Shown: in pieces, positions 360 through 39,607 of the stretch
How the letters are laid out: each line of letters begins with the position of its first letter
Position numbering within the stretch: the stretch's first letter is position 1
Source of the DNA: a virus
Strand: one strand, 5' to 3'
Length of the DNA: 64,000 bases
IMG/VR virus record: IMGVR_UViG_3300011269_000001
Translations under genes and position numbers: made by a program
Notes under the pieces: generated by a model
What the model was told of the DNA's origin: nothing
Seen by the model: the letters and a program-made list of their open reading frames with translations, nothing else
Database searches by the model: none

Positions 360-3300
360 TTACTTGCTCTCCTCATCGAGCTTCTTCGGCAGTGGTGGTT
401 GAATCACTTCGACTCCGTCTATGTAGAACGGTCCTTCATCCCGTGAGCGGTATAATACCACAATCGCAATACTTCCTGCTATTGATGTCGCGGGAAGATT
501 TTCTATTTCGCCAGTTTTTCTGCTCGGCCACATCACGGTTGTGAGTCGGTGGCCGTCAATGTCCAGAGTGATTTCGGCCCGGGTGCATTTCTTGTTGTCT
601 GTCTTCCTAAAATAATCTTTGCGCTCATCATTGAGAATGTACGCGCAGACCCCGACGGCGATACCACCTTCTGGGACGGGCACAATTTCAGAAAGTCGGT
701 TCAGGCCGTTATTGCCGACGATTCTATATTTTTGGTCCCGGTACTCGTAGGTCCAGATACCCTTGATTTCTTCCGTGAAACCTTTGGACTTGAGGGAAAG
801 AATAGAACCAAAGAGTTCAGAAGAGAAGGATGGCGAAACTTTCTTGCAGAGTTGGTATCGGATGAGCGGGGTAGTATTCTGATACAAAGGATTGACGGGC
901 TTGGCGTTCTTCTTACTTTCGGCTCGGGCCAGAGCAGCTTCGAGGAGCATGAACTTCTCCTCAAAGAGGATATCGGGAGCGAAAAGGCTATCTAGGGAGC
1001 CACTGGCGACGAGCGGGTAAAGATTCCCGCGGTGCAAGCTACTGTGGCCTTTCTTTTCCTTTCCGGTTTCCGCGTCGACGGTCTTGTTGTCTTCCTTGTG
1101 CTTCTTTATTTTTTGGCAGAGGTCTTCGATGTTTGCGTACGGCTTCCCGGCCATCAGCTGCTTGTGAGCGTTTTCCCCGATGCCGTTCAAGAATGACAGC
1201 GGAGCATTGATTTTGTCACCGCGAATCTCGAAGACCTCGCTACTGACATTGATGTCCGGGATGGTTATCAGGTGGCCGCAGTACCGCCAGAACTTGGTGT
1301 CGATTTCATCTTTATCTGCGTGCCGGAGCACAGCAGTCCACCACTCCAGAGGATAATAGTGCTTCAGCCAGGCACAGGCATAGCCGATGGTGACGTAGCA
1401 CATGCTGTGGCTTTTATTGAATCCGTACTGGCCAAAGGTTTCCATACTGTTCCAGAGCTGTTCAGCGGCTTCTTTGCCGATGGTTTCTACAGCCCCGCGC
1501 ATGAATATTGCCCGGTCCTTGATGACGTTAGACATCTGCTTTTTGCTGATGTGGATTCGGAAGTTATTGGCCTCGATTGCCGTGGCCTTGCCAACTTCCT
1601 GGAAGACTTGCTGCAGCTGCTCCTGGTAGACGATGACACCGTAGGTCTCAGGAAATAACCGGTCCAAAATCGGGAAGGAGCCAATTTTGGCTTTATTCTT
1701 GGCTCGGTTGGCAAATTCCACGAGCATGTTGTGTTTCTTGCCTGTCACTGGGTCTTCGACTGGATAGTCCAGAGGTCCCGGACGGTCGAGAGCCGTGAAG
1801 GCGCTCAAGTCTTCAATGCTGTCCAGACCCTTATGTACTTCTCCGTTCTCCACGAAGCTGACCTCGTTGAAGTTACTCAACAGCTGCCGGGCGCCTGGGG
1901 TGTTGAACTGAAAAACTGATTCTGTCTTACTCTCGCACATGTCGTTGAAGACGGCTTGGTCCTCAGGAAGCTTCCAGATATCGTAGAATTCACCGCGGTG
2001 CGGTATCACGCGGATGATAGGCACTCGGCGGTTCTTGATTTCGATACTGGGAAGCTCGTACTTGGGGTTGAGTTTGATTTCTACTCCGCTCCGGGCCTGG
2101 ACGAGCTTGATACAGACGGCAATGTCCTTCAAGCTATTCAGATTCAAGAAGTCAACTTTCAGGGCGCCCATAGCCTCAACGCTGGTGGCCGTGAACTGAG
2201 TCACCCGGGTCTTGTCGATGGTGGTCAGTGGGATGAAGTTGGCGATGGGTTCGTTGCTGATAATGAATCCGCAGGCGTGGCGACCCTTCTGCCTTACCAG
2301 ACCAAGACAACGCTTGATGATTTCCCATTCCTTCGGATAGTTCTGGACAAAATATTGTAGCATGCCATCCTTCTCAATGACTCCCGGTGTCCAGGTCCCG
2401 TCACCGCTTTTGTACCCGAAGACAAAATCATGGTCCGTGATGCCCTGTGGCGGGTCCGGGAGGTCACCGCAGATGGCTTCGATGGTCGGGTCCACGCGAC
2501 CGTATAGGGCCCGGAAGACGTCCTTGATGCTGGACTTGAGCTTCATCGTCGTGTCGGTGCTGATTTGCGCGTAGCAATCCCCAAAACGGTCTCGGAGCCA
2601 GCCTTTGGTCGGGTCTTCTGGGTCCACGAGGATGTCACGGGACGGCAGGTCCTGGTCAATGTCCGGGAACTTACCACTCTGAATACGGTCAAGGGTCAGG
2701 AACCGGTCTCGGCTGAGCCCACGCTCCAGGGGGTCGACGTGGGTGATGTCTAGGACATAAGCCAGAAGCATGCCGGCGGCGCTACCTCGACCCGGTCCAG
2801 CGAGTTCCCCGCGCTTTTCATATTCCCAGTCAATTTCTTCGAGGATGAAAAAGTACGTGAGTAAGTCAATAGTGCCGTTGTAGTGTAGGAGGTCAATCTC
2901 GGACTTCAGGCGGTCGAAGTACTCGGGCTTGTGCCAATCCATGCGGCCGTGTTTTCGAACCAGTTCGATGGTATGTTCAAGGGTATTCGAGGGGTAGAAC
3001 TTAGTCGGGAGAGTGATTCTCGGAGAGAACTTAAAATCCTTGAAGCGACCGGACCAGGCCCAGTTATTCTCTATCCAGTATTCAAAGGTACTCTGGTCGA
3101 CCTTCATCACGTCCCGGAAATAATTCCAGGCCTGGTCGCTGGAGACTCGATGATGCACGTTCGAGAAACGCCAAGCGCCACCGCCTTGTTGAAGGCGAAT
3201 ATCTTGGACAATCTTCTCTTCGGGATTCGCAAAATGCGCATCGTCGCTGATGAGAACCGGGTCACCGTAACGCTGAGCCAATTCAAGCACGAATCTGTTG

Positions 3301-4226
3301 TGCCCTAACTGAAGGTCGCCGTCCGGAGCCCAGGCTCGACATTCATTTTTCAAAAAGCCTTGGCGAATCTCTATCAATTTAATTTCTTTTGGAGGATTCA
3401 GTTCCTGCCATTTGCGGTCTTCCATGATGGCAACCAGCCGATTGTGTTCCAACCTGAACCGCGCCGGGTTATCCACGAAGAGTCGAGCTAGCTTGCCGGC
3501 TTTGATGCCATGCTTCGCATCGCCTTTATGCTTGTCCGTCCGAAAATTCTTCCAATCCGGGAATCTTTGCGTCGTGTCATCCTCGAAAGTGACGAATACA
3601 GCACTGTCGTAAAAGGTATCGCAGACATGAGGGAATACTTCGACGTAGAAATTGCCGGGCTTCACCGATGCTCGAAGGCGTTCGTAGTACTTGATGGCTG
3701 TCTGGAAATCGTTCCGGGCCATCATGTGTCGGTTGACCATACCGATGAGACAGCTACTGGTCATGGTGATGTTTTTGCTTCCCAGCTCTTCGATGTCGCG
3801 CCAGTTGAACAGCGGCTTCTTTTCTTTGCCGTGACGTTCAGCCCTGAAATCAGCAGCGCTCAGAATCCGAGAGCAGGTGCTATAGGCTTCCTCGTCAAGG
3901 AGGTGCATGGTAATATGGCCGTACTTGAAATCTTCGTCCAGGAATTTGCCATCCTTGTCTTTCTGCAAGCCCTTCTCAAGCAAAATAGGACAGTCATCGT
4001 CTCGGAAGTATCCCTCCAGACCCAGGATGGGAGTCAACTTGCCGCGGTACTCCTTGCTGTGGGCCAGGTCATAGACCTTTCGGACAACAGAGAGGGAGCC
4101 GTGGTCAGTGACGGTGATGGCGCCGGTGCCCAATTCAACTTCCTTCTTGGCGAAAGCCTCTGCATTCGAAGCAGAGTCGAAGGAATCAATATGGACGTGG
4201 GGGCTTGGATAGCCGGGGAAACTCAT
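360..4226 (-). CDS. dnaE: DNA polymerase III alpha subunit (DnaE-type, family C)
   Basis: PHP motifs HVH and ITVTDHG; GPGRGSAAG; catalytic PDIDQD; KVDFLNL; RPGPL; ETYGVIVYQEQ; YGFNKSHS. Start taken at MSFPGYPSPHVH (4226). Confidence 0.95.
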   Translation of the reverse strand: MSFPGYPSPHVHIDSFDSASNAEAFAKKEVELGTGAITVTDHGSLSVVRKVYDLAHSKEYRGKLTPILGLEGYFRDDDCPILLEKGLQKDKDGKFLDEDFKYGHITMHLLDEEAYSTCSRILSAADFRAERHGKEKKPLFNWRDIEELGSKNITMTSSCLIGMVNRHMMARNDFQTAIKYYERLRASVKPGNFYVEVFPHVCDTFYDSAVFVTFEDDTTQRFPDWKNFRTDKHKGDAKHGIKAGKLARLFVDNPARFRLEHNRLVAIMEDRKWQELNPPKEIKLIEIRQGFLKNECRAWAPDGDLQLGHNRFVLELAQRYGDPVLISDDAHFANPEEKIVQDIRLQQGGGAWRFSNVHHRVSSDQAWNYFRDVMKVDQSTFEYWIENNWAWSGRFKDFKFSPRITLPTKFYPSNTLEHTIELVRKHGRMDWHKPEYFDRLKSEIDLLHYNGTIDLLTYFFILEEIDWEYEKRGELAGPGRGSAAGMLLAYVLDITHVDPLERGLSRDRFLTLDRIQSGKFPDIDQDLPSRDILVDPEDPTKGWLRDRFGDCYAQISTDTTMKLKSSIKDVFRALYGRVDPTIEAICGDLPDPPQGITDHDFVFGYKSGDGTWTPGVIEKDGMLQYFVQNYPKEWEIIKRCLGLVRQKGRHACGFIISNEPIANFIPLTTIDKTRVTQFTATSVEAMGALKVDFLNLNSLKDIAVCIKLVQARSGVEIKLNPKYELPSIEIKNRRVPIIRVIPHRGEFYDIWKLPEDQAVFNDMCESKTESVFQFNTPGARQLLSNFNEVSFVENGEVHKGLDSIEDLSAFTALDRPGPLDYPVEDPVTGKKHNMLVEFANRAKNKAKIGSFPILDRLFPETYGVIVYQEQLQQVFQEVGKATAIEANNFRIHISKKQMSNVIKDRAIFMRGAVETIGKEAAEQLWNSMETFGQYGFNKSHSMCYVTIGYACAWLKHYYPLEWWTAVLRHADKDEIDTKFWRYCGHLITIPDINVSSEVFEIRGDKINAPLSFLNGIGENAHKQLMAGKPYANIEDLCQKIKKHKEDNKTVDAETGKEKKGHSSLHRGNLYPLVASGSLDSLFAPDILFEEKFMLLEAALARAESKKNAKPVNPLYQNTTPLIRYQLCKKVSPSFSSELFGSILSLKSKGFTEEIKGIWTYEYRDQKYRIVGNNGLNRLSEIVPVPEGGIAVGVCAYILNDERKDYFRKTDNKKCTRAEITLDIDGHRLTTVMWPSRKTGEIENLPATSIAGSIAIVVLYRSRDEGPFYIDGVEVIQPPLPKKLDEESK

Positions 4227-4231
4227 TCCGA

Positions 4232-4489
4232 TTAGTCTAACACGGATTGCTTCAATTTGAACGCGAGAGGTTCTTGACGACGAGGGAAAACATTCACGTA
4301 CTGGTCCGGCATCCAACCGTACATGGGAATATTGTTCTCAGTCACCGCCATCCATTTCTGTCCACAGTTGCTGCACTTCAGAAACAAGCCGCCGTCAGAG
4401 AAATTCAGAAAATCGTGATGACAGGGCTCTGGTGCTTTCTTCGGAAGAAGAGCCTTTAGGAGGTCGTTGATTTTACTTTTTGATTTCAT
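4232..4489 (-). CDS. small zinc-ribbon-like hypothetical protein
   Basis: CHH...CSNCG; ATGA overlap with upstream gene. Confidence 0.55.
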   Translation of the reverse strand: MKSKSKINDLLKALLPKKAPEPCHHDFLNFSDGGLFLKCSNCGQKWMAVTENNIPMYGWMPDQYVNVFPRRQEPLAFKLKQSVLD

Positions 4490-15409: not shown

Positions 15410-16081
15410 TTGAGGTGGATGACAATGCTCGTGAACTTCGTCGGTAGTCCAGCAAGTGGGAAGACCACTACCGCGGCTATGCTCTTTGCTACCCTGAAGG
15501 AAAGAGGATTGGCAGCTGAGTTCATCACCGAAGTAGCTCGTTACTACATCGCTGAAAGAAAGTTTTTTCTGGCTCTGGAGAATTTGGAAATGCCGGTTCT
15601 CTACGACCTAGACCAATGCAAAATCATGGACCGTCAATACAGGACAGAGTACACGATGGTCATCAACGGAGGAAGAGATTCTCTGATTATCAGCGATGGA
15701 AGTCCATTGAACTCTCTTCTCTACATGACTCCGGAATTTCGCCAGAACCCCTTGATTCAAGACCTCGTGGAAAGAACCAAACGGCTAATGGAAGGTCCAT
15801 GTGGTCTACCAAAGTCCCTGACGTTTATCTGTGCCCCGGTAGACCGTGACCGCAACATCCCCGACCCTAACAGAGCCCATGACTTAGAGCAGATTAAGAA
15901 AATCGATAGTCAACTCATTGACGTCATGAATCAAACCGGATTGGGACTGCTGACAGAACCCGGAGTCTTTCTGGAGGCACTTGGGGAATGGAAGGAAGCC
16001 CGCTGGATTTGGTTGACCGGTGACACTCAGCGAAGACTTACCGATGCCTTGGAATGGGTTTACCGAAGGTTATGTGAATGA
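15410..16081 (+). CDS. P-loop nucleotide kinase (NadR/AAA_28-like)
   Basis: GSPASGKTT, EVAR, ISDGSPL. Confidence 0.75.
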   Translation: MRWMTMLVNFVGSPASGKTTTAAMLFATLKERGLAAEFITEVARYYIAERKFFLALENLEMPVLYDLDQCKIMDRQYRTEYTMVINGGRDSLIISDGSPLNSLLYMTPEFRQNPLIQDLVERTKRLMEGPCGLPKSLTFICAPVDRDRNIPDPNRAHDLEQIKKIDSQLIDVMNQTGLGLLTEPGVFLEALGEWKEARWIWLTGDTQRRLTDALEWVYRRLCE

Positions 16082-16233
16082 AAAAAGTTCGTTGCTTTAT
16101 TTGTCAGAGAGTGTTCAAGCATCGGCAACCAGGAATCTGGGTGGCCCGACACTTCCCTAACTGCCCAAAGTGGAAGTACCTGACAGAGCCGCGTCGCCTG
16201 GTTTATCGAAATGGTTCCTGGTGGGATGAATGA
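16078..16233 (+). CDS. 51-aa zinc-finger-like protein (not in ORF track)
   Basis: MKKVRCFICQRVF...RHFPNCPKW...; ATGA overlaps with both neighbours. Confidence 0.55.
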   Translation: MKKVRCFICQRVFKHRQPGIWVARHFPNCPKWKYLTEPRRLVYRNGSWWDE

Positions 16234-17741
16234 GCATTCTTGACGTTGTTGACCCGGTACGGATGTACATCCGCGGATACGAAGACCGTCTGGGAGAACT
16301 TCAGACCGGTCTCACGTACGTAGACAAGAAAGTCGACTACCTGATTCAGAGGCACAGGCACGCTCACTGGTTCCGGCGAAAGTATGGAGAAGAAGCCTAC
16401 CAGGAAAAGATGAAAACCCTCAAGGCTGAGCGGAAGAAGTGTTTGCTCTTCATCGACGAAGAAGGAATGTGGACTTACTCCGGTCTCAAGTCCTTTGTCG
16501 AGTCCATTGTCCGATCCGACGAAATCCGTTCCCAAATCGAATATCCAGAGCCAAAACTCATGGCCTGGGACGCCAAGCCCGTGAATGAGAGGTATCCGTA
16601 TCAGTTCACGGCCACCGAGAAAATGCTCCACCACCGTCACTGTGCCGTGGAACTCGCGACCGGCCTCGGGAAGACTTTTATTATTCTTCATCTGGTGAAG
16701 GAACTCGGTTTGAAGACTTTGGTCATGGCCCCGAGTCTCAGTATCGCTGAGCAGATTCGGGACCTGTTCATTGAACACTTCGGCCGGCGTCGGGTTGGAC
16801 AGTTTTTTGACGGCCGGAAAGAAGTCCACAAGCTCATAACCGTGGGCATTCCGCAGTCCCTGATTAGAATCGAAGAAGATTCCCCGGAGCAGCAGGCCTT
16901 AAGCCAGGTCCAGGTCTTTATTGCCGATGAATCCCATCTCTGCCCAGCACAGACCCTGGCAAACGTCTGCTTTGGGCTTATGAAGGCCGCTCCCTACCGA
17001 TTCTTCTTCTCGGGTACCCAGATGCGAAACGACGGCCTGGATACGCTCCTTGGCGCTATAACCGGGCCAGTCGTTCTTCGCATGACTGTCCGTGAAGGAG
17101 TTGACCACAATCCTCCGTACCTTGCCAAGCCCGTGTTCAGGATGGTCAAGACTTTTTCTCAGTCTCCGTTCCGGGGTCAGGACGTGAATGACATGACCCG
17201 GACGCATCTGTACTACAACCCTGTGGTTGTCAGCCAAGCGGCTTTGATTGCCAACAATTCCGTGGCGGCCTACGGTCACCCGGTATTGATTCTCGTGGAT
17301 GAGATTGAGCAGTTCGTCCAACTTCTGCCTCAGCTCCGGCATCGGGTCGGATTTGCTCATGGGCCTTTGGACGCTGAGAACAAAGGCAAGGTCCCTGACG
17401 CCTATCATGTCAGTGAGCCGAACTTTCTGGTTCGAGAATTTAATAATCTGCGTTTGCCTATCCTCGTCGGTACCAGCTGCATCAGTACGGGTACTGACGT
17501 ACAGGCAGTGAAGACGATGATAAACCTCCGCGGCGGAAAATCAGAAATCGAGGTCCGCCAATCTGTAGGTAGATGTACGAGACTTCATAAGCCCGGAGAG
17601 AAAATAGCCTGCAATATCTTTGACTTCGACGTCGCGAACGTTGAACCGGTGAGCCGGCATGCGAAGTTCCGGAAGAAGGTGTATGAGGAGATTTATGGTC
17701 CCGTGGAGGACGTAGACTGGCGAATGAGTCTGGGAAAATGA
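16230..17741 (+). CDS. superfamily 2 helicase (UvsW-like)
   Basis: ATGLGKT, DESH, SGT, QSVGRCTR. Confidence 0.9.
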   Translation: MSILDVVDPVRMYIRGYEDRLGELQTGLTYVDKKVDYLIQRHRHAHWFRRKYGEEAYQEKMKTLKAERKKCLLFIDEEGMWTYSGLKSFVESIVRSDEIRSQIEYPEPKLMAWDAKPVNERYPYQFTATEKMLHHRHCAVELATGLGKTFIILHLVKELGLKTLVMAPSLSIAEQIRDLFIEHFGRRRVGQFFDGRKEVHKLITVGIPQSLIRIEEDSPEQQALSQVQVFIADESHLCPAQTLANVCFGLMKAAPYRFFFSGTQMRNDGLDTLLGAITGPVVLRMTVREGVDHNPPYLAKPVFRMVKTFSQSPFRGQDVNDMTRTHLYYNPVVVSQAALIANNSVAAYGHPVLILVDEIEQFVQLLPQLRHRVGFAHGPLDAENKGKVPDAYHVSEPNFLVREFNNLRLPILVGTSCISTGTDVQAVKTMINLRGGKSEIEVRQSVGRCTRLHKPGEKIACNIFDFDVANVEPVSRHAKFRKKVYEEIYGPVEDVDWRMSLGK

Positions 17742-24636: not shown

Positions 24637-26847
24637 ATGGCCAAAAAGACTTCCATAGAAGCGGACCTCTCACCGTTCGCTAAAAGCCTCATCGAGACTG
24701 TTGTCAGCAATCGGCCGACCAAGGTGGCTAAGTCTGTAAAAAAGGGCAGCGGCAACATCCAGATGATGATGAATTACCCTTCCTTTGACGATACCCTCAA
24801 CGTCCTGGAGGCAGCGGAATTTAAGAAGCTCGAAGAGGAACTGAATAAGAAAGTAGCAAGTTCCAGTCCTCTTGTGAAGTCGGTTCTTAACGTCCTCAAC
24901 GGACCAGGCAAGGTCAGCATTGAGCGGTTGGCCTTTGAGACAGACCCCAGCCAACACAACATTTACCAGAGTGTCTACCGGGTAAAGCTTCGGCTCCTGC
25001 CCGATGACATCCTGAAGCGAATCAGTATCCAAGACGACCTTGTGGCGTCTATTGCCAACGCCCGCTGCAACCAGGTAGCTGTCTTCGGACGTCCACAGCC
25101 AGACCGCTTCGGAACCGGATTCAAGATTGAAGCTGAGCCCGGGTATATGGAGAAGTTGGACAAGGAAGAGAAGAAAAAACTCCAGGAGAAGATTCGTAAG
25201 GCCGAATTGAGGCTCCTGAATTGCGGTAGCACCACCGGCTGGTCTGACAAAGAGGCCCTGACCTTCAATCAGTTTCTGTTCATCTCTGCCCGCAATGCGG
25301 TCATCTTCGGTCGGACGGCAACGGAAATCATTTTCAAGAAGACCATGGATGGTAATAGGGAATTCCATTCTTTCAGGCCCATCGACGCCGGTACTATCTA
25401 CCAAGCTTCGCCCCAAAGGGAAGCAGTGGAAAGCGTCCGCCAAGAAGCTCGAAAGCTGTTGGAGCAACTCAAGAACCGAAAACTGGAGCCGGAGAAGTTC
25501 GCGAATGACGAATACGCCTGGGTCCAAGTTGTTCACGGTCGTCCGGTGCAGGCTTTCACTCCTGATGAATGCTTAGTCCACAACTTCTATCCGGTCTCTG
25601 ACGTTGAACTTGACGGGTATCCGTTGACGCCAATCGACACGATGATTGCTGCGGTCACGACCCATATCAATATCACGAACCATAATAAGCTCTATTTCCA
25701 ATCCGGTCGCGCAGCCCGTGGCATGATTGTCATCAAGTCGGATGACGTCGACGAGGGAGTTATCTCCAAGATTCGGCAGCAGTTCAACGCCAGCATCAAC
25801 AGTGTTGCCAACGCATGGCGTATGCCCATCTTTGGCGTCGGCAGCGATGATGAGATTGGCTGGTATCCAATCGACAACAGTAGCCGCGACATGGAATTCC
25901 AGTATCTTTCTGATACGAATGCCCGGGTTATTCTCTCTGCGTTCCAGATGAGTCCTGAGGAACTCCCGGGCTACGCACACCTGAGTCGTGGTACCAACAA
26001 TCAGGCTCTCTCAGAAAGTAATAACGAATACAAGCTCGAAGCCCACCGTGACGTTGGCATCAGACCCCTAGTGGGCCAGTTCCAGAACTTTATTAACAGC
26101 CGAATCTTCCCGCTGATTGACGAGGAACTGGCGAAGATTTGTACCATCAAGTTCATTGGCCTCGACGTAGATACTGCCGAAAAGGAAGCCATTAGACTCC
26201 AGCAGGACATGGGCATTCACATGACCATGGACGATGTTCTGGAGCGCGTCGAGAAGAAGCCGCTTGGGAAGAAATTTGGCGGCAAGTTTATCCTCAATCC
26301 TCAATGGCAGGCTGTCCTTGACAAGTATGTGCCCGTGGGCGTCATCATGGAGGAATTTTTTGAAGTCCCAGGCGCCAGCAAAGACCCTCTCTATGCGTAT
26401 CTCCGGGACCCGTTCTATTTCACGCAGGTTCAGAATCTCATGCAGCAACAGCAGCTGCAACAGCAAGCCGAGCAGGCTAAGCAAGCCGCAGCTCAAGGTC
26501 AGCCACTGCCTGGACAAGAAGGCCCCCCTTCGGATAGTGGTGGTGATGGTGGACCGGCGAAGAGTCGTGAGCAGCATGGAGCAGACCGCGAGCAGGTCAA
26601 GGAACAGGGCGAACAAGGCGGCTCTGACCAATCTGCTGGTGACCAAGGTCAGGACCTGACTCGGTCCATCGACCAAATGATTGGACTCCTTAGCAAGAGC
26701 GAAAACCAATTGCCTCCTTCCAAACGACGCCTGATAGCTCAACAACGGAAGCTGGTGACCAGCGCCCTTGAAGCCTGGGAAAAAGATAGCCAGGACACGC
26801 TGAAGGAAATCACCGATATCGCGCTGAAACATCTGCCGAGGAAATAG
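24637..26847 (+). CDS. portal protein
   Basis: FRPIDAGTI, NKLYFQSGRAARGMI, AWRMPI, DMEFQ, FQMSPEEL, GIRPL; position in head module. Confidence 0.88.
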   Translation: MAKKTSIEADLSPFAKSLIETVVSNRPTKVAKSVKKGSGNIQMMMNYPSFDDTLNVLEAAEFKKLEEELNKKVASSSPLVKSVLNVLNGPGKVSIERLAFETDPSQHNIYQSVYRVKLRLLPDDILKRISIQDDLVASIANARCNQVAVFGRPQPDRFGTGFKIEAEPGYMEKLDKEEKKKLQEKIRKAELRLLNCGSTTGWSDKEALTFNQFLFISARNAVIFGRTATEIIFKKTMDGNREFHSFRPIDAGTIYQASPQREAVESVRQEARKLLEQLKNRKLEPEKFANDEYAWVQVVHGRPVQAFTPDECLVHNFYPVSDVELDGYPLTPIDTMIAAVTTHINITNHNKLYFQSGRAARGMIVIKSDDVDEGVISKIRQQFNASINSVANAWRMPIFGVGSDDEIGWYPIDNSSRDMEFQYLSDTNARVILSAFQMSPEELPGYAHLSRGTNNQALSESNNEYKLEAHRDVGIRPLVGQFQNFINSRIFPLIDEELAKICTIKFIGLDVDTAEKEAIRLQQDMGIHMTMDDVLERVEKKPLGKKFGGKFILNPQWQAVLDKYVPVGVIMEEFFEVPGASKDPLYAYLRDPFYFTQVQNLMQQQQLQQQAEQAKQAAAQGQPLPGQEGPPSDSGGDGGPAKSREQHGADREQVKEQGEQGGSDQSAGDQGQDLTRSIDQMIGLLSKSENQLPPSKRRLIAQQRKLVTSALEAWEKDSQDTLKEITDIALKHLPRK

Positions 26848-30893: not shown

Positions 30894-33800
30894 ATGGCGT
30901 CTACAGGAATGGTACTTGACGGCGTCCTCGCGTCCGAGGCCATTGACAGCTCCGGTGAAATCCTCGACATCAAAGGCGCAGACATTTCCGACCTTGTTGA
31001 GGGCAAAGGTATTCTCAACTGGGAACACAACGGAGACCAGGGCAGTCAGGACATTGTTGGGAAAATAATCTACGCCAAGAAAATATTTTCCGAGAAAGAC
31101 TGCGACAACGACCGGGAGCTTGAGTTCTATCATAAGGTCAGGTTGCCGTTGATTTACGGCATCGGGCGCCTCTTTGACGGTTCCGGTCATCCGAATGCAG
31201 TAGCTCTGGCCGCTCAGATTCGCGACTACCTGGCCAATGACGAGCCCATCATCGTCGGCTTTTCCATCGAGGGTTCAACGCTCGAATCCAAAGACAAGAG
31301 ACTGCTCAGGACCGTGTGTCGGAAGGCGGCTCTGACGGTCAAGCCCTGTAACAAATCCTGCGTTGTCGGCGTCGTGGAAGACCCCAACGCCCCGAAGGGC
31401 TTCAAACAGAAACCAGATGACAGCCTGAAGCTTAACGAGCACCCTAATTACACTCGACTCGGCGGCTCTGAGTTACAGTTCAATCCGGTTCTGGATGGTG
31501 ATGTCCTCCAGCGGGCATTGGCCAAAGTTGAATCCGTCCGGAAGGCTCTTGAAGCCGGGAACTATAACGTGGCTCCTTCGGCTATGACCGGCGGCGCTGC
31601 CCTTCAAGTCGAAGACCGAAGTCTGCACCTGGCTCATCTCCGCAATCAGGCCCGGGCAGCACTTAGGGACTGGGACCGGAAGACGCCGTTTCGTGAGGTC
31701 CTGAAGCACAAGCTCCCAGAGGCCAGTGACGATTTCATCGACCGATTCTCGAACCTCGTCGATAATTACACGATGAAGCTCAGGAAGGCTCAGGAATCTT
31801 TTTCCAAGTGCATGGAATGCTCAAAGCCGCCCAGATACGAGGCCCGGTGGGCTGAAGGCATGGCCAGGGTCTGGTTCTGCGAAGACCATTGGCCTCAGTG
31901 GGAAGAAAAGCACCAAGACGACATCGACTTTGTCCGGAAGCTGACTGACGCCCGGGTCGGAAGTAAGTATGGTGAGGCTCCTGGGGAAACTCTTCAGAAA
32001 GCCGAAAAAGAATCATTGAACTGGACTGCCGGAAAGCAATCATGGGCTGGGGAAACAAAAGTACATTCTGCCGGAGCCCGTCATGGAGAATACCACGTAT
32101 TGCCACACCAATCGGGAGGTTTTGACGTCCAGTATTACAAAAAAGGGCACGACTCTCTAAGGTCATCTGCTAAAGCCTCCACTCTTGAGAATGCCAAAGA
32201 ACTTGCTTCTCAGCATCATAATTCTGGGGAATGGAAACTTTACAAGAAGGAAGGTGAACCTCGAAAGCCTGGTAGCCGTGGCAGTCAAGCCCCGTCATTT
32301 AAGAAATGGGTAGAAAGTGGCAAGGCCGAGACTGAGCAAGCCACCATCCGCGGCAAACCCGTGCAGCCGAATCCTCAAATCAAGCAACCTCATTTCGACG
32401 AGAAAGCCGGAATTCTGCATACCCCAAAGGGCAGCTTCCCGATGTATATCCCCTCTCGGGATAAAGAGAACAAGGGCGCTGGTGAAGCTTTCCACAATAT
32501 CCTCAATGACCCCAAACTCAGCAAGTTTCACGATTATGCTACTGAGAACTGGGCCCAGGTTCATAAGCTTCTGAAAGAAGGGAAACTCCCCGAGGAAGTC
32601 ATTATGCACGGAGTTCTCTTCTCCCAGCTCAGCCCTAATACTCCGGTGCCGGTGCAGGAATTGATGTACGGTCATCTTGTGGATTCGATGAAGCACACGG
32701 GCCTGGACCCTCGACATTCCGAATTTTCGAACATCCGTCAGGATTGGCTAGGTCGAGACAATCCGTCAGTGTTCCCAGAGCATGGCCGCAGCCATTTCGA
32801 ACGGCTCCAAGAAGAACTCCGGAATAAGAGAGACTCGAAGCTCACTAACCGCAAGGCCGGGGATATCAGCAGCTTCATGTTGGCGAACAATAAGTTCAAG
32901 AACATGGAGAAGTACCATACTCTCCACCAAGGTCTTGTGGAATTGGTAAATCGCCATCGCCATGATGCCCGCTCCGCCGTCCAGGAGCTGATGGACCACA
33001 AACACCGCGCCATGCTCTGGAATTCGAAGCGAAATCGGGACATCGATAAAGGTCTTCCAGACCCTGGCGAATACCAAGGCCCAGTGGTTCCTGGTCTTGC
33101 TCCCAAGACGGCCAGGTATACGTACGGGATGATGGGTGGTGGAAACGTCATAGTCCCGGATACGCACATGAGCCGGTATCTGTTCGGGTTGGAGAAGGGC
33201 AAAGACAATCCGACGATTTCTTACGTCAAGGACCTGCTCTGGAATCCGAACAACAGTGAAGTCCTGAACGCCATCGACCGCTATTACGCCAAGCACCATG
33301 ACGCCGTCAAGCACATGCGCGAGCATCCGCGTTGGGGCTCGGAATTTGAATCAGACGAAGACGCTATCTTCCCAGCGTTTTGGAAGAATTGGGTTGCCAT
33401 CGCTCCTCACGAAAAATTCCGCGGCCTGTCGACTCTGGCTCATAATGAGGCCACCGACCATCGACCTTTCTGGGAAGCAATTGCTCCGCATCTGACCAAG
33501 AACGAAGGCGAATCCCTGGATACGTCTTTGCCCGAGAAGACTGCCATAACCATGCATTCTTGGGTCAAGGAATATGGCGAAGTTCCGGCAATGATGCTCT
33601 ACTATCGATACCTGGCACCGCAGCTGTTAGAGGCTGCCAAGCGCCGGTTAAATAAGAAACCGAATCCGGTGATGAAGTTCGAGGCCATGACCATTGAACT
33701 CCGGAAGGCTTTCGGCGACCCGAATATTTTTGACCGACAGGGTCTTAAGTCGCCGGCTAAGGCGGTATTGGGTACTCCGGAACGGGCGAAAGCTTACGCT

Positions 33801-34742
33801 CAGGAATTTGCTCAAAAGAATGAGCAGAACCGGCTGCGAAATATTGTTGATTCTCAGCGTCATAGTGTCGGTGAGTACAATCAGCGCCCGGAACAACATA
33901 AGCTTGTCCACGGCCTTGATTTCAACAAGGAAGGCAGACGACCGGAAGCCCCTACGGCTCAAAGCGAAATGTCTCATTGGCGGAAAGCTCCAACTGGGTC
34001 TTGGGCGTTTGTAAAAGGGAGTTCTATCATACACCGGAGCGCCTATACGCCTGCGGGGGGTGGCAAGGCCCTGACTGAGCCTCACGAAGCTTTCAACGAA
34101 GCACGGCGCGAGGGATTGTTTCATAACCTAGCCCACAACGTTTTCAAGCTCGGCAATTACCTGCCCACGGTCTCGGTGGTACACCATCCAGATTCCGGCG
34201 ACGAACTTGCAGTCATCGAGAAAATCAAAGGCGGCGAGCATTACCATGATTCTCCTCAACACCGGGCAATGCTTCAGCAATTGGGTGATAGCGGTGAACT
34301 CGACAAGTTGATGGCTCAAGACCTTATCCTGGGAGTGCCAGACCGACATGACCACAACTGGATGGTAACGCCCAAAGGAATGAAGGTCCTTGACCATGGA
34401 TATGCTTTTGAGGACCCGGGCAACATTCCCGACTATATCGAGCGGTATTCATTTCTGGGCAGAGACTTCAAAAGCATGAAGCCTCACGAGCTTACCGAAC
34501 TTGCCCGGAATTGGACCGGCGCTCCGGTGCACGATAGCGCCCGTCAATTCATCAGAGACATTGACGAGGATGCTCTCCGTCATGAGATGGTCAGGCATCA
34601 GGCCCCGCAGCATATCATCGAACAGACGATGGAAAGACTCCGGAAGGCAAAGGAAATAAACGATGACGAGAAATTCAAGCACGGACTTCCGAGGATGAAA
34701 CTCTGGAATTCACACGCTTACCGTGGTCCCGAGGATTACTAA
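30894..34742 (+). CDS. prohead protease polyprotein: protease + capsid-like peptide + small Cys/His domain + HhH-GPD glycosylase-like domain + PI3/4K/HipA-like kinase
   Basis: protease DSSGEIL, NWEH, GFSIEG, ALTVKPCN; HhH PGLAPKTARY...VPDTH; kinase FVK...REG...DRHDHN...LDHG. Confidence 0.8.
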   Translation: MASTGMVLDGVLASEAIDSSGEILDIKGADISDLVEGKGILNWEHNGDQGSQDIVGKIIYAKKIFSEKDCDNDRELEFYHKVRLPLIYGIGRLFDGSGHPNAVALAAQIRDYLANDEPIIVGFSIEGSTLESKDKRLLRTVCRKAALTVKPCNKSCVVGVVEDPNAPKGFKQKPDDSLKLNEHPNYTRLGGSELQFNPVLDGDVLQRALAKVESVRKALEAGNYNVAPSAMTGGAALQVEDRSLHLAHLRNQARAALRDWDRKTPFREVLKHKLPEASDDFIDRFSNLVDNYTMKLRKAQESFSKCMECSKPPRYEARWAEGMARVWFCEDHWPQWEEKHQDDIDFVRKLTDARVGSKYGEAPGETLQKAEKESLNWTAGKQSWAGETKVHSAGARHGEYHVLPHQSGGFDVQYYKKGHDSLRSSAKASTLENAKELASQHHNSGEWKLYKKEGEPRKPGSRGSQAPSFKKWVESGKAETEQATIRGKPVQPNPQIKQPHFDEKAGILHTPKGSFPMYIPSRDKENKGAGEAFHNILNDPKLSKFHDYATENWAQVHKLLKEGKLPEEVIMHGVLFSQLSPNTPVPVQELMYGHLVDSMKHTGLDPRHSEFSNIRQDWLGRDNPSVFPEHGRSHFERLQEELRNKRDSKLTNRKAGDISSFMLANNKFKNMEKYHTLHQGLVELVNRHRHDARSAVQELMDHKHRAMLWNSKRNRDIDKGLPDPGEYQGPVVPGLAPKTARYTYGMMGGGNVIVPDTHMSRYLFGLEKGKDNPTISYVKDLLWNPNNSEVLNAIDRYYAKHHDAVKHMREHPRWGSEFESDEDAIFPAFWKNWVAIAPHEKFRGLSTLAHNEATDHRPFWEAIAPHLTKNEGESLDTSLPEKTAITMHSWVKEYGEVPAMMLYYRYLAPQLLEAAKRRLNKKPNPVMKFEAMTIELRKAFGDPNIFDRQGLKSPAKAVLGTPERAKAYAQEFAQKNEQNRLRNIVDSQRHSVGEYNQRPEQHKLVHGLDFNKEGRRPEAPTAQSEMSHWRKAPTGSWAFVKGSSIIHRSAYTPAGGGKALTEPHEAFNEARREGLFHNLAHNVFKLGNYLPTVSVVHHPDSGDELAVIEKIKGGEHYHDSPQHRAMLQQLGDSGELDKLMAQDLILGVPDRHDHNWMVTPKGMKVLDHGYAFEDPGNIPDYIERYSFLGRDFKSMKPHELTELARNWTGAPVHDSARQFIRDIDEDALRHEMVRHQAPQHIIEQTMERLRKAKEINDDEKFKHGLPRMKLWNSHAYRGPEDY

Positions 34743-35878
34743 TGGACATTCAACATGAGAACATCTGGCTGGTCTTTGCCGTGCATCCCAAAGATGGAAG
34801 TGACACGATAGAGCGAAGCCTTGTCGGGAAATTCAGCCTACATGATGGCAGACTGGACGTCCTGGAAGACCATGTAGGTTTTCTCAGGGACTTGGAGCGG
34901 CAACCTCCGGCCGTGGCGACGCGGAAAATCTGGTCTATGGAGCATTCACCATACCTGCAGCTCATCAGTCTCGAAGAGCTGAAGCAGGGCGAACATCCTG
35001 ACCTACAGCCGTACTTGACAATGGTTCATGGTAAACTCGAAGATGTCGAACAGCCAAAGGGAGAGAATGTTTTCGAGTACCATCGACAGGGCATGGAAGC
35101 GCCTCAGACCGTCACCGTCAATGAAGATGGCACCGTCCTCCTTGATGGCCACGAGCTTATCCCCGAGGAAGTCCAGAGACTTCTCCAGAACGCAGCGCAG
35201 GGCGTTGCCACAATCCGTTATCCCCAGGACCACGAAGACCAGGCCATGCAGAAGATGGAGGCATTGCTAATGAGTCTTGACGGCGTTGGCGAGTCTGGCC
35301 TCGGCAGGGCCATGCAAGAACTCCGCAAGGCCCAGAAGGATGGCCGCATCGAATCTTACGTCGCTGAGGAAATTGCCCGGCATCTATTCAAGGACACCTT
35401 GGTTCCGGTCATGGGGAATCTGAAAGCGTACCGAGATTTTCTCAGTCGCCCGCGGCGGGGCATCCACGTCCACATCGACGGGAACCAATTTAAGTCCATC
35501 AACGACACCCACGGTCACGAAGTCGGTAATCAGGCCATCAGGGGTATCGGGATGGCAATTCGTTCAGCTCTCGATGAAGCGATCGGACGCGCCAAAGCAA
35601 AGTCCTTTCGTACCGGCGGTGATGAATTCGTGGTCCATGTGCCAACTCACCAGGAAGCGGCTCATTTCTCTAGAGTCCTGAGGTCCAAGCTCGAAGCCCT
35701 GCCGCCTGTCGGCGGTACTCATGGCCTCAGCGTGTCAATGGGATTCGGAATGGTTCCGGAGCATGCCGAAGCAGCACTGCAACAGGCCAAGGAAGCCAGC
35801 CACCAGGCCAATTATCAGCCGGGCAAGGCTCAGCATCACGTCCATAGTTTAGTTCCGGGTTCTGAGGGAGCCTTGTGA
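34742..35878 (+). CDS. GGDEF-domain nucleotide cyclase with N-terminal extension
   Basis: IDGNQFKSINDTHGHEVGN, FRTGGDEF, SVSMG, AEAALQQAK; TAATG overlap with the protease gene. Confidence 0.88.
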   Translation: MDIQHENIWLVFAVHPKDGSDTIERSLVGKFSLHDGRLDVLEDHVGFLRDLERQPPAVATRKIWSMEHSPYLQLISLEELKQGEHPDLQPYLTMVHGKLEDVEQPKGENVFEYHRQGMEAPQTVTVNEDGTVLLDGHELIPEEVQRLLQNAAQGVATIRYPQDHEDQAMQKMEALLMSLDGVGESGLGRAMQELRKAQKDGRIESYVAEEIARHLFKDTLVPVMGNLKAYRDFLSRPRRGIHVHIDGNQFKSINDTHGHEVGNQAIRGIGMAIRSALDEAIGRAKAKSFRTGGDEFVVHVPTHQEAAHFSRVLRSKLEALPPVGGTHGLSVSMGFGMVPEHAEAALQQAKEASHQANYQPGKAQHHVHSLVPGSEGAL

Positions 35879-35977
35879 GGATAAACAAAACTTGCGGGTG
35901 TTTGGAACTTCCGCACTATGCCAAAGGTATGTGTATTCGAACTGCCATCGGCTAAAGGACCTGGGTTCGCCAACACG

Positions 35978-36292
35978 CTATTTCTTAGCGCAATCCTTAC
36001 AGATTTTCTTCCGGCCGTAGAACTGCAAGTCCACTGACAGGACTTCCAAGCAGGTTTGGCATTGCCGCAGGTTTCGCCTGGCGTTGCACCGCCGGCAGGC
36101 TCTGTTCACGTCCAGGGGCCGGTTGTTCCCGCAGACTTCACAGACCGTATCCGGGTACTGGCGCCGATAATATTCTTGGCTTCGGCACTTCCGGCACCAG
36201 GACGTAACCTCTCTCTTCCTGTCCCGGTGGGGACTCTCGTGGAACTGATTCTTGGGCTTGGGGAGGCCACACTTTGAGCAGACGTAGTTCAC
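35978..36292 (-). CDS. Cys-rich multi-zinc-finger protein
   Basis: six CxxC pairs; antisense to the head operon. Confidence 0.6.
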   Translation of the reverse strand: MNYVCSKCGLPKPKNQFHESPHRDRKREVTSWCRKCRSQEYYRRQYPDTVCEVCGNNRPLDVNRACRRCNARRNLRQCQTCLEVLSVDLQFYGRKKICKDCAKK

Positions 36293-36394
36293 GAAACAAA
36301 AGATTGTCGCTTCACACAATTTTTGTTCCAGCTGAGAGGCAATCTAATCCTTTGCACAAGACTTTTCAACCAACTTCTCTGAAGGAGAAAGACC

Positions 36395-36850
36395 ATGGGG
36401 CTCACTTCCTCGAAAGCAAACAGCATCGCAGGCGAACTACTTGACGCGCTTCAAAAGCGTTTTGGTAAGGCGACCGCTACTGACGGTGGCTTGGACACGG
36501 ACGGAAACCGTCTCATTAAGTACGGTCCCGGTACGGCCGGCAGCCAGTCGGCGCTCATCAAGGTCAGCGCGTTCCCGAACATTGGAGCAGATGTCCTTGG
36601 TCTGCAGCAACAGTCTTACAGCCCGACGCTGATTCAGATGGTCCTGGAAACCAGCACCATCGCCAACGTTGCGCTTCTGCAATCTGCGACCCTGATTCCG
36701 CTTAGCGATGAAATCGCGAAATTCGGGACCCGAGTTGAATTGTTCATGACCGCAAATCTCACGGGTCCTTCGGCAGCAGGTATCACGGGCAACCCCGTTG
36801 CAGTGTACGACGGCGCTTCGCTCCAGTACCGGCAATTGGCGAGCTTGTAA
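36395..36850 (+). CDS. virion/head protein
   Basis: AAGGAG SD, upstream CAATCT motif, located before scaffold and MCP. Confidence 0.65.
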   Translation: MGLTSSKANSIAGELLDALQKRFGKATATDGGLDTDGNRLIKYGPGTAGSQSALIKVSAFPNIGADVLGLQQQSYSPTLIQMVLETSTIANVALLQSATLIPLSDEIAKFGTRVELFMTANLTGPSAAGITGNPVAVYDGASLQYRQLASL

Positions 36851-38215: not shown

Positions 38216-39607
38216 ATGGCAAGTGAAGTCACCCAAGCATTGCTGAAGGCCCTAGAGGCGGGCAACTACAATGCAGCTCCCTCGACTTTGGTCCAGGGTT
38301 CCGCATTGCAGATTGAAGACCTCTCGCCGGTGATGAACAACGTCACCTACGATGACAGCCACATTAAGCTGCAGAAGATGCTGAAAGTCGACCCGGTCAA
38401 GAGTACCTTGGCCCAATTCGACCGTCAGCTCAGCTACGGCATCTTCGGGGCTACCGCCCAGAACGAAGGCGCAGTCGGTCAAGAGGAAATGAGCGAATAC
38501 GTTCGTATCGTGGTCCCGATGGCCTATTATAGCCATGTTCGTCGTGTGACGGTGGTCGCAAACCTCGTGGCAACGGTCGACGGCGTCAAAGCCGAAGAGC
38601 GGGCAGCCAGCGACGGTGCGAAGAAAATTGCCGGCGATATCGAGTTCGACAGCTTCCGCGGTAAGGCGGACTTCTCGAACGCGGGTCTTTTCGACGGCTC
38701 CATGCTTGCTATCCCCGGTCTTCCGAACATTCTCGGCCTGGATGCCCAGGTCCGGATGTCGGACGGTCAGCGGAACGCAACGGACTTGATGTTCGGCGAG
38801 TTTGGGTCTGACGACACCGTGGTCATCCAAGGTGGCGGTACCCTGACGCAGGACAACATCGAAGACGCCAGTGTCCGGTCCTCGATGAACTTCGGTATGG
38901 CGGACAAGTTAGTCGTCGACCCGAAGGTTCTCAGCGCCTACAACAAGATTTCGTTCGGCAAAGAGCGAATCATCCTCGCCGGGGCTCCTCAGGACGCCAC
39001 CAGCGCCGACCTTCGGCGTCAGTGGGTGTCCGGTGGAACCGTCAACGTCGAGGCTTCTCGATTCCTCTCTGGCAAGACCCGTCCGGCAACGGCACGGTCT
39101 TCTTCGCCTGGCGCGCCTTCCATCGCGCTGACGGACAACGCTGCTCAAGGCACCAGTGCTCCGGCAGGTACTTACAACTACTACGCTTCAGCTGTCAACG
39201 AGCGTGGTGAGTCTGTCAAGTCGACCTCTGTGACTGTGACCATTGCCGCTGGCGACAGCGTGACGGTTACCATCACTCCTCCGGGTTCCGGCGTGGTTCG
39301 GTACTTCAACGTGTTCCGTTCGAATGCCGGCGGCAACGATGCGACCTCGCGGTTCATCGGCCGTGTGTCCAACAGCGGCGCTGCGACGACAACCTTCCTC
39401 GACCTGTTCAACAAGAATCCTGGTTTCGTCACCGGCTTCTTGATTCAGGGCGATACGATGGCTTTGAAGGAGTTAGCCCCGTATTCTAGGCTGAAGCTTG
39501 CAGTTACGGACCTGAGTATACCTGAAGCGCACTTCAGGTTTGTAACGCTAGCCGTTATGCATCCGAGAAAGAATGTTCTGGTAGACAATCTCAGAGGCGC
39601 ATTCTAA
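38216..39607 (+). CDS. major capsid protein (Herelleviridae-like, with Ig/FN3-like insertion)
   Basis: LLKALEAG...ALQIEDL N-terminus; YYASAVNERGES insertion; AGGAG SD; followed by a terminator. Confidence 0.9.
   Translation: MASEVTQALLKALEAGNYNAAPSTLVQGSALQIEDLSPVMNNVTYDDSHIKLQKMLKVDPVKSTLAQFDRQLSYGIFGATAQNEGAVGQEEMSEYVRIVVPMAYYSHVRRVTVVANLVATVDGVKAEERAASDGAKKIAGDIEFDSFRGKADFSNAGLFDGSMLAIPGLPNILGLDAQVRMSDGQRNATDLMFGEFGSDDTVVIQGGGTLTQDNIEDASVRSSMNFGMADKLVVDPKVLSAYNKISFGKERIILAGAPQDATSADLRRQWVSGGTVNVEASRFLSGKTRPATARSSSPGAPSIALTDNAAQGTSAPAGTYNYYASAVNERGESVKSTSVTVTIAAGDSVTVTITPPGSGVVRYFNVFRSNAGGNDATSRFIGRVSNSGAATTTFLDLFNKNPGFVTGFLIQGDTMALKELAPYSRLKLAVTDLSIPEAHFRFVTLAVMHPRKNVLVDNLRGAF

Follow-up and report, generated by a model that had tools for sequence, protein, structure and literature searches.

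A GGDEF module associated with a predicted head-maturation protease in Mx1-like myophages is a candidate head cargo

Host cyclic nucleotides are known targets of phages, which break them down or sequester them; virion-delivered enzymes and phage GGDEF proteins are also known. In T4, the enzyme Alt and IPI-III are built into the prohead core, are cut by gp21, are ejected with the DNA, and act before phage gene expression (PMC9026906). Head-packed, ejected proteins have also been described in giant phages such as SPN3US (PMC10052503). GGDEF has been listed as a rare constituent of the polyvalent proteins of phages and conjugative elements, which are predicted to be delivered and for which interference with nucleotide signals has been suggested (PMC5512222). 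In this report, we analyze a GGDEF gene, P0001, from a 64,000-nucleotide stretch of virus record IMGVR_UViG_3300011269_000001. The stretch (the window) comes from a virus record of 164,871 bp that bears direct terminal repeats. The apparent novelty is a GGDEF family tied to a head-maturation protease. We found no literature on such a family and none studying the corresponding gene of Myxococcus phage Mx1, and a dinucleotide cyclase has not been reported as head cargo.

With modest confidence, we propose that P0001 represents a conserved cargo module in its free-standing form; this module consists of an N-terminal domain (N-domain), a linker and a GGDEF domain and would act in Mx1-like myophages as a head-packaged, ejected, feedback-free cyclase. 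The phage head probably takes up the enzyme and delivers it to the next host. P0001 and its features, all on the plus strand, are listed here with nucleotide positions in the window and amino acid (aa) positions in the protein.

34742-35878, plus strand: GGDEF module gene P0001, 378 aa
34739-34743, plus strand: TAATG stop/start overlap between the upstream polyprotein gene and the GGDEF gene, with a GAGGA Shine-Dalgarno sequence 7 nucleotides (nt) upstream
34742-35227, plus strand: N-domain, aa 1-162, two beta-rich lobes, family-specific, without recognisable fold
35234-35389, plus strand: helical linker or stalk, aa ~165-216, with modelled helices at 165-177, 186-199 and 205-216; holds LRKA
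35321-35332, plus strand: LRKA, aa 194-197, in which the Lys is K196
35390-35875, plus strand: complete GGDEF catalytic domain, aa ~217-378, its last strand formed by the conserved HSLVPG segment
35528-35530, plus strand: Asn263, at the base-recognition place of PleD Asp344 and GacA Ser348, ending NDTHGHEVGN (residues 254-263)
35588-35599, plus strand: RAKA, residues 283-286, occupying the place of the RxxD inhibitory site (I-site)
35615-35629, plus strand: GGDEF active-site motif, residues 292-296
35843-35869, plus strand: C-terminal motif HSLVPGSEG, residues 368-376; family consensus HSLVPGxEGPVP

Several methods agree in identifying the GGDEF domain. P0001 scores 57.8 bits against PF00990 (Pfam cut-off, 23.8) and 46.7 against TIGR00254 (cut-off, 37.4). 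The family profile matches WspR in the PDB at E 2e-11, and a Foldseek search with the P0001 model finds SiaD at E 8e-10. The AlphaFold2 (AF2) model, with a mean predicted local distance difference test (pLDDT) score of 86.8, has three parts, namely the N-domain, the helical linker and the GGDEF domain. VIA-align superimposes this model on WspR (3bre) with Z 19.1 and a root-mean-square deviation (rmsd) of 1.9 A across 149 residues. The best 32 VIA-align matches are all GGDEF-domain entries, and class III cyclases come next at Z 12-13. The GGDEF assignment of P0001 is therefore far beyond chance. Identity as a minimal CRISPR polymerase or class III cyclase was considered and rejected (Z ~12 vs 19 for GGDEF).

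The N-domain is well predicted when folded alone by AF2 (pLDDT 90.1). It has no match in Pfam, and among 48,161 chains searched with VIA-align the best hit reached only Z 4.4, with poor rmsd. Because Mx1 encodes the N-domain as its own 150-aa gene, we consider it a separable unit. At the other end of the protein, the C-terminal motif is well conserved over the 176 family members used for residue counts throughout this report (P372 in 136, G373 in 145, E375 in 137 and G376 in 154). In most relatives, HSLVPGxEGPVP is followed by a variable Pro-rich tail of 20-60 residues; P0001 has no such tail.

A word-indexed search yielded about 30 full-length homologues of P0001 at 36-67% identity, many of them on contigs of 50-172 kb (alignment A1). 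A profile search of 1.84 billion representatives returned 262 with E <= 1e-30, and we count the family as at least 262 clusters (50% identity). Mx1 is the only isolated phage that carries the gene. A megablast search with 12 kb against GenBank phages gave no match, and a pattern scan of viral contigs gave no relatives.

Catalytic residues are conserved across this family. The metal Asp, D246 (PleD D327), is kept in 169 of the 176 members, the base-binding Asn, N254 (PleD Asn335), in 174, R290 (the PleD R366 equivalent) in 158, and K350 (the PleD K442 equivalent) in 170. Within the motif itself, G292, G293, D294, E295 and F296 are kept in 160, 173, 173, 162 and 141 members, respectively. This near-invariance supports the claim, made in an initial annotation of the window, that the cyclase is intact. 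The GGDEF motif itself was located correctly there, as confirmed by a coordinate check. In one subgroup with FGxINK, the Lys of FKxIND is lost and a Lys is gained four residues later, one helical turn away, which looks like a compensated change under selection for catalysis. Residues 251, 255 and 259 (35492-35518) co-vary as K251/D255/H259 (FKxINDxxGH) or G251/K255/F259 (FGxINKxxGF).

The initial annotation also stated that RAKA replaces RxxD. This proved correct: RAKA begins 9 residues ahead of GG, which matches the place of PleD R359-x-x-D362 (script check). Because RxxD occurs in 0 of the 176 members, I-site feedback appears to be absent across the whole family. The enzyme is thus predicted to be feedback-insensitive, as had been suggested, in the sense that it is without an I-site, and this loss applies family-wide.

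The strongest argument for a head-internal cargo comes from relatives in which the module is fused to a protease. We surveyed the best 150 representatives, 54 of which are at least 600 aa long. In 38 of these 54, a single chain contains a homologue of the protease domain that begins the polyprotein upstream of P0001 (window aa 1-~300), followed by a complete C-terminal N-domain/linker/GGDEF module. The middle region of the polyprotein (aa ~470-942) is also present in 22 of the 38, and the fused relatives reach 1704 aa. Two fusions, on contigs 122 and 170 kb long, could be placed; each lies between portal and scaffold/capsid genes, where the window has two genes. Head-maturation proteases are prohead-core components, and therefore a covalently attached module would be built into the prohead. 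The protease fusions thus appear to support packaging far better than synteny alone. The initial annotation had inferred that the enzyme is packaged, and the 38 fused relatives at the same syntenic position strengthen that proposal, indirectly but substantially.

No PI3/4-kinase-like region occurs together with the GGDEF module in one chain among the 54 long relatives (P0046-P0180). Where the polyprotein ends in the kinase-like domain, a gene of its own, translationally coupled, encodes the module. In P0058, P0060, P0140 and P0161 (707-915 aa), the module is N-terminal and is followed by 300-500 more residues.

The joints of the fusions share a motif. In 27 of 42 fusions, L[RK]K[AST] is found in the 45 aa that precede the module; the background elsewhere in the fusion proteins is 16 of 472 sequence windows, counted with a looser form of the motif. 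The initial Met of the standalone proteins falls at about the N-terminus expected after a cut at the joint. The same kind of motif, L-x-K-A-[LM]-E-A-G, is found at the N-terminus of all five aligned capsid proteins. In the window polyprotein, MKLRKA (residues 294-299) and IELRKA (934-939) stand at the borders of blocks conserved in BLAST comparisons. All aligned scaffold proteins keep [L/M/G]-x-K-S-E (MGKSEQE, LAKSENE and similar), and seven portal orthologues have L-x-K-[SGN]-E-x-Q-L-P near the C-terminus (the window portal gene is at 24637-26847). These motifs fit a shared Lys-specific site for the head protease in capsid, scaffold, portal and polyproteins. A T4/phiKZ-type cut at [AG]-x-E was also considered, given A-L-E/A-G in the major capsid protein (MCP) and G-S-E-G at the C-terminus of the module. 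Since the fusion joints show L-R-K-[AST] and no conserved Glu, the Lys motif is the better candidate for a cut site. PGQEG in the portal protein was rejected as a chance occurrence because it is not conserved among portal orthologues.

Within P0001 itself, the initial annotation had pointed to an LRK/A site at K196. The position is correct, and in the window phage and its relative P0002 the sequence, which lies in linker helix 186-199, matches the fusion-joint motif well. Cleavage there did not fare as well: the family consensus is LRxAVKAGH, and only 13 of 176 members have Lys at the K196 position. A cut between the N-domain and the GGDEF domain is therefore without comparative support.

The gene neighborhood also associates the module with head formation. 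We compared ten loci (the window, Mx1, and L003-L010), and all ten have the same order: a large protein with head-protease and/or kinase-like regions, the GGDEF module, a protein of about 150 aa, a Pro/Ala-rich scaffold-like protein, and an MCP of about 465 aa. In five of the eight loci with a standalone module, the upstream stop codon overlaps the module start; in the remaining three, the two are 1-9 nt apart. Neighboring features in the window are as follows.

30894-34742, plus strand: upstream 1282-aa polyprotein, with protease domain, middle region and kinase-like domain
30894-31793, plus strand: predicted head-maturation protease domain, ~aa 1-300; phrog_1028, E 1.3e-5
33843-34655, plus strand: PI3/4-kinase-like domain of the polyprotein, aa 984-1254, with DRHDHN and LDHG motifs
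35978-36319, minus strand: Cys-rich open reading frame (ORF) of 113 codons with a TTG start and CxxC pairs, inside the 516-bp stretch 35879-36394
36395-36850, plus strand: head-module protein of ~150 aa, syntenic in 10/10 loci; aligns across the window, Mx1 and L003-L005
36883-38178, plus strand: scaffold-like protein, acidic and rich in Pro/Ala; its C-terminus and a [GA]-K-S-E motif are conserved
38216-39607, plus strand: MCP; phrog_752, E 9e-49; N-terminal L-x-K-A-[LM]-E-A-G motif

Assignment of the upstream protein as a head-maturation protease has moderate support from profile comparisons. Among 26 aligned homologues, 14 match phrog_1028, with a best E of 1.1e-9, and H45 and S124 are invariant in the protease-domain alignment. 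Sequence and profile searches of the protease domain against the PDB, and a search of Pfam, gave nothing significant, so that only PHROG profiles support the assignment. The Pfam PI3_PI4_kinase match of the upstream protein is also weak, and comparison with the L003 orthologue shows conservation of the kinase block. The window MCP is 59.7% identical to that of Mx1 and about 27% identical to SPO1-like MCPs.

Two claims of the initial annotation about this arrangement require adjustment. It had coupled the GGDEF gene to the protease through TAATG. The coupling is real, as the ATG overlaps the upstream stop and GAGGA lies 7 nt before it, but the upstream 1282-aa protein is a polyprotein whose abutting part is PI3/4-kinase-like, and only its first ~300 aa correspond to the protease. 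It had also placed the gene in a head operon. The head-module position stands, but the 516-bp stretch with the minus-strand ORF separates the GGDEF gene from the next head genes. Because this downstream stretch carries a conserved minus-strand Cys-rich ORF, "head module" is safer wording than "one operon". An intrinsic terminator was sought 3' of the GGDEF gene and was not found.

The minus-strand ORF has a weak match to a double zinc ribbon (E 0.011). When the equivalent gaps of six phages are aligned, recurring GCA/CA columns correspond to minus-strand Cys codons, and L009 has a called 117-aa minus-strand gene in its equivalent gap. From these comparisons, the gap ORF is predicted to be an antisense zinc-ribbon gene that is conserved within the head module. 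Other loci have peculiarities of their own. The upstream proteins of L003 (652 aa) and L008 (681 aa) have weak PI3_PI4_kinase matches. In L003, the first 300 aa of this protein match no protease family, and a ClpP-family gene is nearby. L008 carries a Ribosomal_L12 homologue and a HopBF1-type kinase near the head module (15507-16359), and L006 encodes a DUF3626 protein between portal and protease polyprotein (2422-4482).

In GGDEF enzymes, the specificity residue makes contact with the base at its Watson-Crick face; Asp directs the choice of GTP, and Ser or Thr allow ATP, such variants occurring and being active only with GGDEF, not GGEEF (PMC6456294). Of the guanine-recognition pair (PleD Asn335 and Asp344), P0001 has the first half, N254, and Asn263 replaces the Asp half, as the initial annotation had noted. 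The place at which Hypr enzymes have Ser or Thr (PleD 344, GacA 348) is thus Asn in P0001. Its central motif is GGDEF, not GGEEF, as in Hypr enzymes, and Asp is found at that motif position in 173 of 176 members. In a profile alignment, the family sequence G-N-K-K-A-Y lies opposite S-N-R-R-H-F of WspR. From this alignment to WspR, a Lys is likely at the cross-dimer place where Hypr enzymes have Tyr (GacA Y304) instead of Arg.

Position 263 is variable. It is Asp in 143 of the 176 members, Asn in 29, Thr in two and Ser in one. At least 12 changes between Asp and Asn are required on a FastTree phylogeny (160 rows, with the position-263 column excluded), on which the window groups with P0002, its closest relative, in a small pair that has Asn; Mx1 has Asp. 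Members with Asn263 are mostly of the G251/K255/F259 type (20 of 29), 88 members combine K251/D255/H259 (FKxINDxxGH) with Asp263, and the K-D-H-N combination of the window is rare (3 of 176). Among the relatives, which include P0118 and P0168, the two Thr and one Ser variants have GGDEF, a true Hypr signature. Asn263 is therefore real in this lineage, and is a labile minority state, not a family signature. The emphasis that the initial annotation had placed on it is weakened accordingly. The related suggestion of an altered product by analogy with Hypr enzymes is also weakened, since Asn is not the Ser or Thr that defines them (PMC6456294). That paper is silent on Asn, and we did not find a test of Asn at the specificity position in the literature examined.

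Because Asp is the majority state at the specificity position, cyclic di-GMP (c-di-GMP) is most likely the product by default. A changed product is possible by chemical analogy, in that Asn might pair with either purine: its amide is able to pair with adenine N1/N6, as judged from general chemistry, and, being isosteric with Asp, the residue could continue to bind guanine.

Packaging and ejection would proceed as follows. The module would be co-assembled with the protease into the prohead core, and in fused forms the protease would cut it free. Like T4 Alt, it would then remain inside the filled head until ejection together with the DNA. Within the newly infected host, it would condense two purine nucleoside triphosphates to a cyclic dinucleotide without product inhibition, and would raise the level of the host second messenger before any phage gene expression. 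Asn263 may relax or shift the choice of purine. A second GGDEF gene and genes for EAL and PilZ were sought in the phage genome, and none was found; the GGDEF gene is single. Since the phage genome is without an EAL or PilZ gene, receptors for the product would be host proteins.

Several points weigh against this proposal. In the window phage the module is unfused, and no capsid-targeting signal was identified on P0001. Degradation and expulsion is often the fate of prohead-core proteins, so a link to the protease proves neither presence in the mature virion nor ejection. Support for the protease assignment comes from weak profile matches (E 1e-5 to 1e-9), and an Asn in the guanine-binding position might reduce activity. 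Finally, the Mx1 paper lists the gene only as "nucleotide cyclase".

An extended form of the proposal seems to us quite unlikely. In it, a burst of signal at entry would come from an injected enzyme kit (the kinase-like domain, other polyprotein domains and the cyclase), the specificity residue would be part of an arms race with the host, and the product would rewire the host, or would jam or decoy type III CRISPR or the cyclic oligonucleotide-based antiphage signaling system (CBASS). In a bolder variant, the dinucleotide would be synthesised inside the head and delivered as small-molecule cargo. In Myxococcus xanthus, expression of a CBASS/type III CRISPR island blocks Mx4 and leaves Mx1 unaffected (PMC11506125). 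This resistance fits a role in interference with defence and proves nothing.

Of the alternatives to head packaging, we regard one as a serious, though minority, possibility: P0001 may be an ordinary, non-packaged auxiliary diguanylate cyclase whose late expression accompanies that of the head genes and whose action is confined to the producing cell. It might change surface polysaccharide or motility, exclude superinfecting phages, or affect the timing of lysis. Such a role would agree with the free-standing gene of the window phage, with the absence from P0001 of a targeting peptide or a conserved cleavage site (Lys at K196 being confined to 13 of 176 members), and with the existence of phage GGDEF genes outside head modules (seven PHROG families; in BFVD, phage G, SP-15 and CN1). 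However, it does not account for the fixed position of the gene beside the head protease (10 of 10 loci), or for the 38 relatives that are protease fusions behind a motif that also marks the N-terminus of capsid proteins. The same location among core, scaffold and capsid genes could instead reflect a role in structure or assembly only, in which the GGDEF fold would be, without catalysis, a part of the prohead core or scaffolding, or a domain that docks the protease to the capsid; the conserved HSLVPGxEGPVP and Pro-rich tail could dock to the shell. We judge this highly improbable, because the catalytic residues are conserved and the Lys relocation looks like compensation. Near-invariance, down to ~35% identity or lower, extends to residues without a structural need (GGDEF, the metal Asp, the base-binding Asn, and the Lys and Arg that bind phosphate), and the conserved Lys was relocated, not lost.

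Another alternative concerns the product. Asn263 might make P0001 a Hypr-like synthase of 3',3'-cGAMP, c-di-AMP or another purine dinucleotide, with the new product being the point of the gene, for example in interference with immunity. An Asn amide could pair with adenine N1/N6 by general chemistry, and the family contains one Ser and two Thr variants. The residue stands at the Watson-Crick-face place that sets the choice of GTP or ATP, and the family is uniformly GGDEF, never GGEEF, which is the sole background with active Ser or Thr variants (PMC6456294). Nevertheless, we find this rather unlikely. Hypr enzymes are defined by Ser or Thr, and tests of Asn were not found in the literature examined. 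Asn is isosteric with Asp, and guanine binding could persist. With Asn in 29 of 176 members, at least 12 switches with Asp, and Asp in Mx1, the role of the family seems independent of Asn.

If our proposal of a head-packaged cyclase is true, a capsid-borne, feedback-free synthase would represent a tactic opposite to the removal of host signals, namely the writing of a host second messenger at entry. Through Mx1, which grows on Myxococcus xanthus, the family of at least 262 clusters is accessible in a cultivable model; c-di-GMP controls motility, exopolysaccharide and development in that host, so that the idea is directly testable. The protease-fused forms would be a natural example of an enzyme cargo addressed to the capsid via the maturation protease, which is relevant to capsid engineering.

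The closest counterpart of the window locus is that of Mx1 (OR576727.2), in which WNM70323 (hypothetical, 150 aa) and WNM70324 ("nucleotide cyclase", 243 aa) follow WNM70322 ("putative prohead protease", 1239 aa). Both loci have the order portal, protease polyprotein, module, ~150-aa protein, scaffold and MCP. The GGDEF part of the Mx1 protein is 46.8% identical to that of P0001, with GGDEF intact and RxxD absent. The two differ in that the Mx1 module is split into an N-domain gene and a linker-plus-GGDEF gene, has Asp at the specificity position, and has a degenerate C-terminal PGxEG. The Mx1 genome paper contains nothing on the cyclase beyond its annotation.

Among cellular enzymes, WspR (3bre, 3i5c) and PleD (1w25, 2v0n) share the GGDEF fold with P0001 (Z 19.1 and 18.1), as well as the metal Asp, the base-binding Asn, the R366 and K442 equivalents, and GG[DE]EF. 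P0001 differs from them in being without RxxD, in having Asn for PleD Asp344, and in being encoded in a head module. It is also without a Rec, PAS, GAF or membrane sensor, and has the family-specific N-domain instead. The Hypr enzymes (Geobacter GacA, 5VS9/6d9m; Bdellovibrio Bd0367) resemble P0001 in the replacement of the specificity Asp by a non-acidic residue on a GGDEF background (PMC6456294). However, the replacement in P0001 is Asn, not Ser or Thr, and GacA keeps its I-site and a Rec domain.

As judged from the available part of the polyvalent-protein report (PMC5512222), the upstream 1282-aa protein and the fused relatives of P0001 fit the description of multi-domain polyvalent proteins, and the GGDEF examples given in that part are not linked to a head-maturation protease. 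P0001, in contrast, has one enzymatic domain and lies beside, or in relatives is fused to, the protease polyprotein in an SPO1-like head module. In comparison with T4 Alt, P0001 is a predicted head cargo. The two systems also appear to differ in how cargo is addressed to the head: T4 uses a short N-terminal capsid-targeting sequence that is cut after Glu, whereas the Mx1-like relatives have a covalent protease fusion and a Lys-containing motif.

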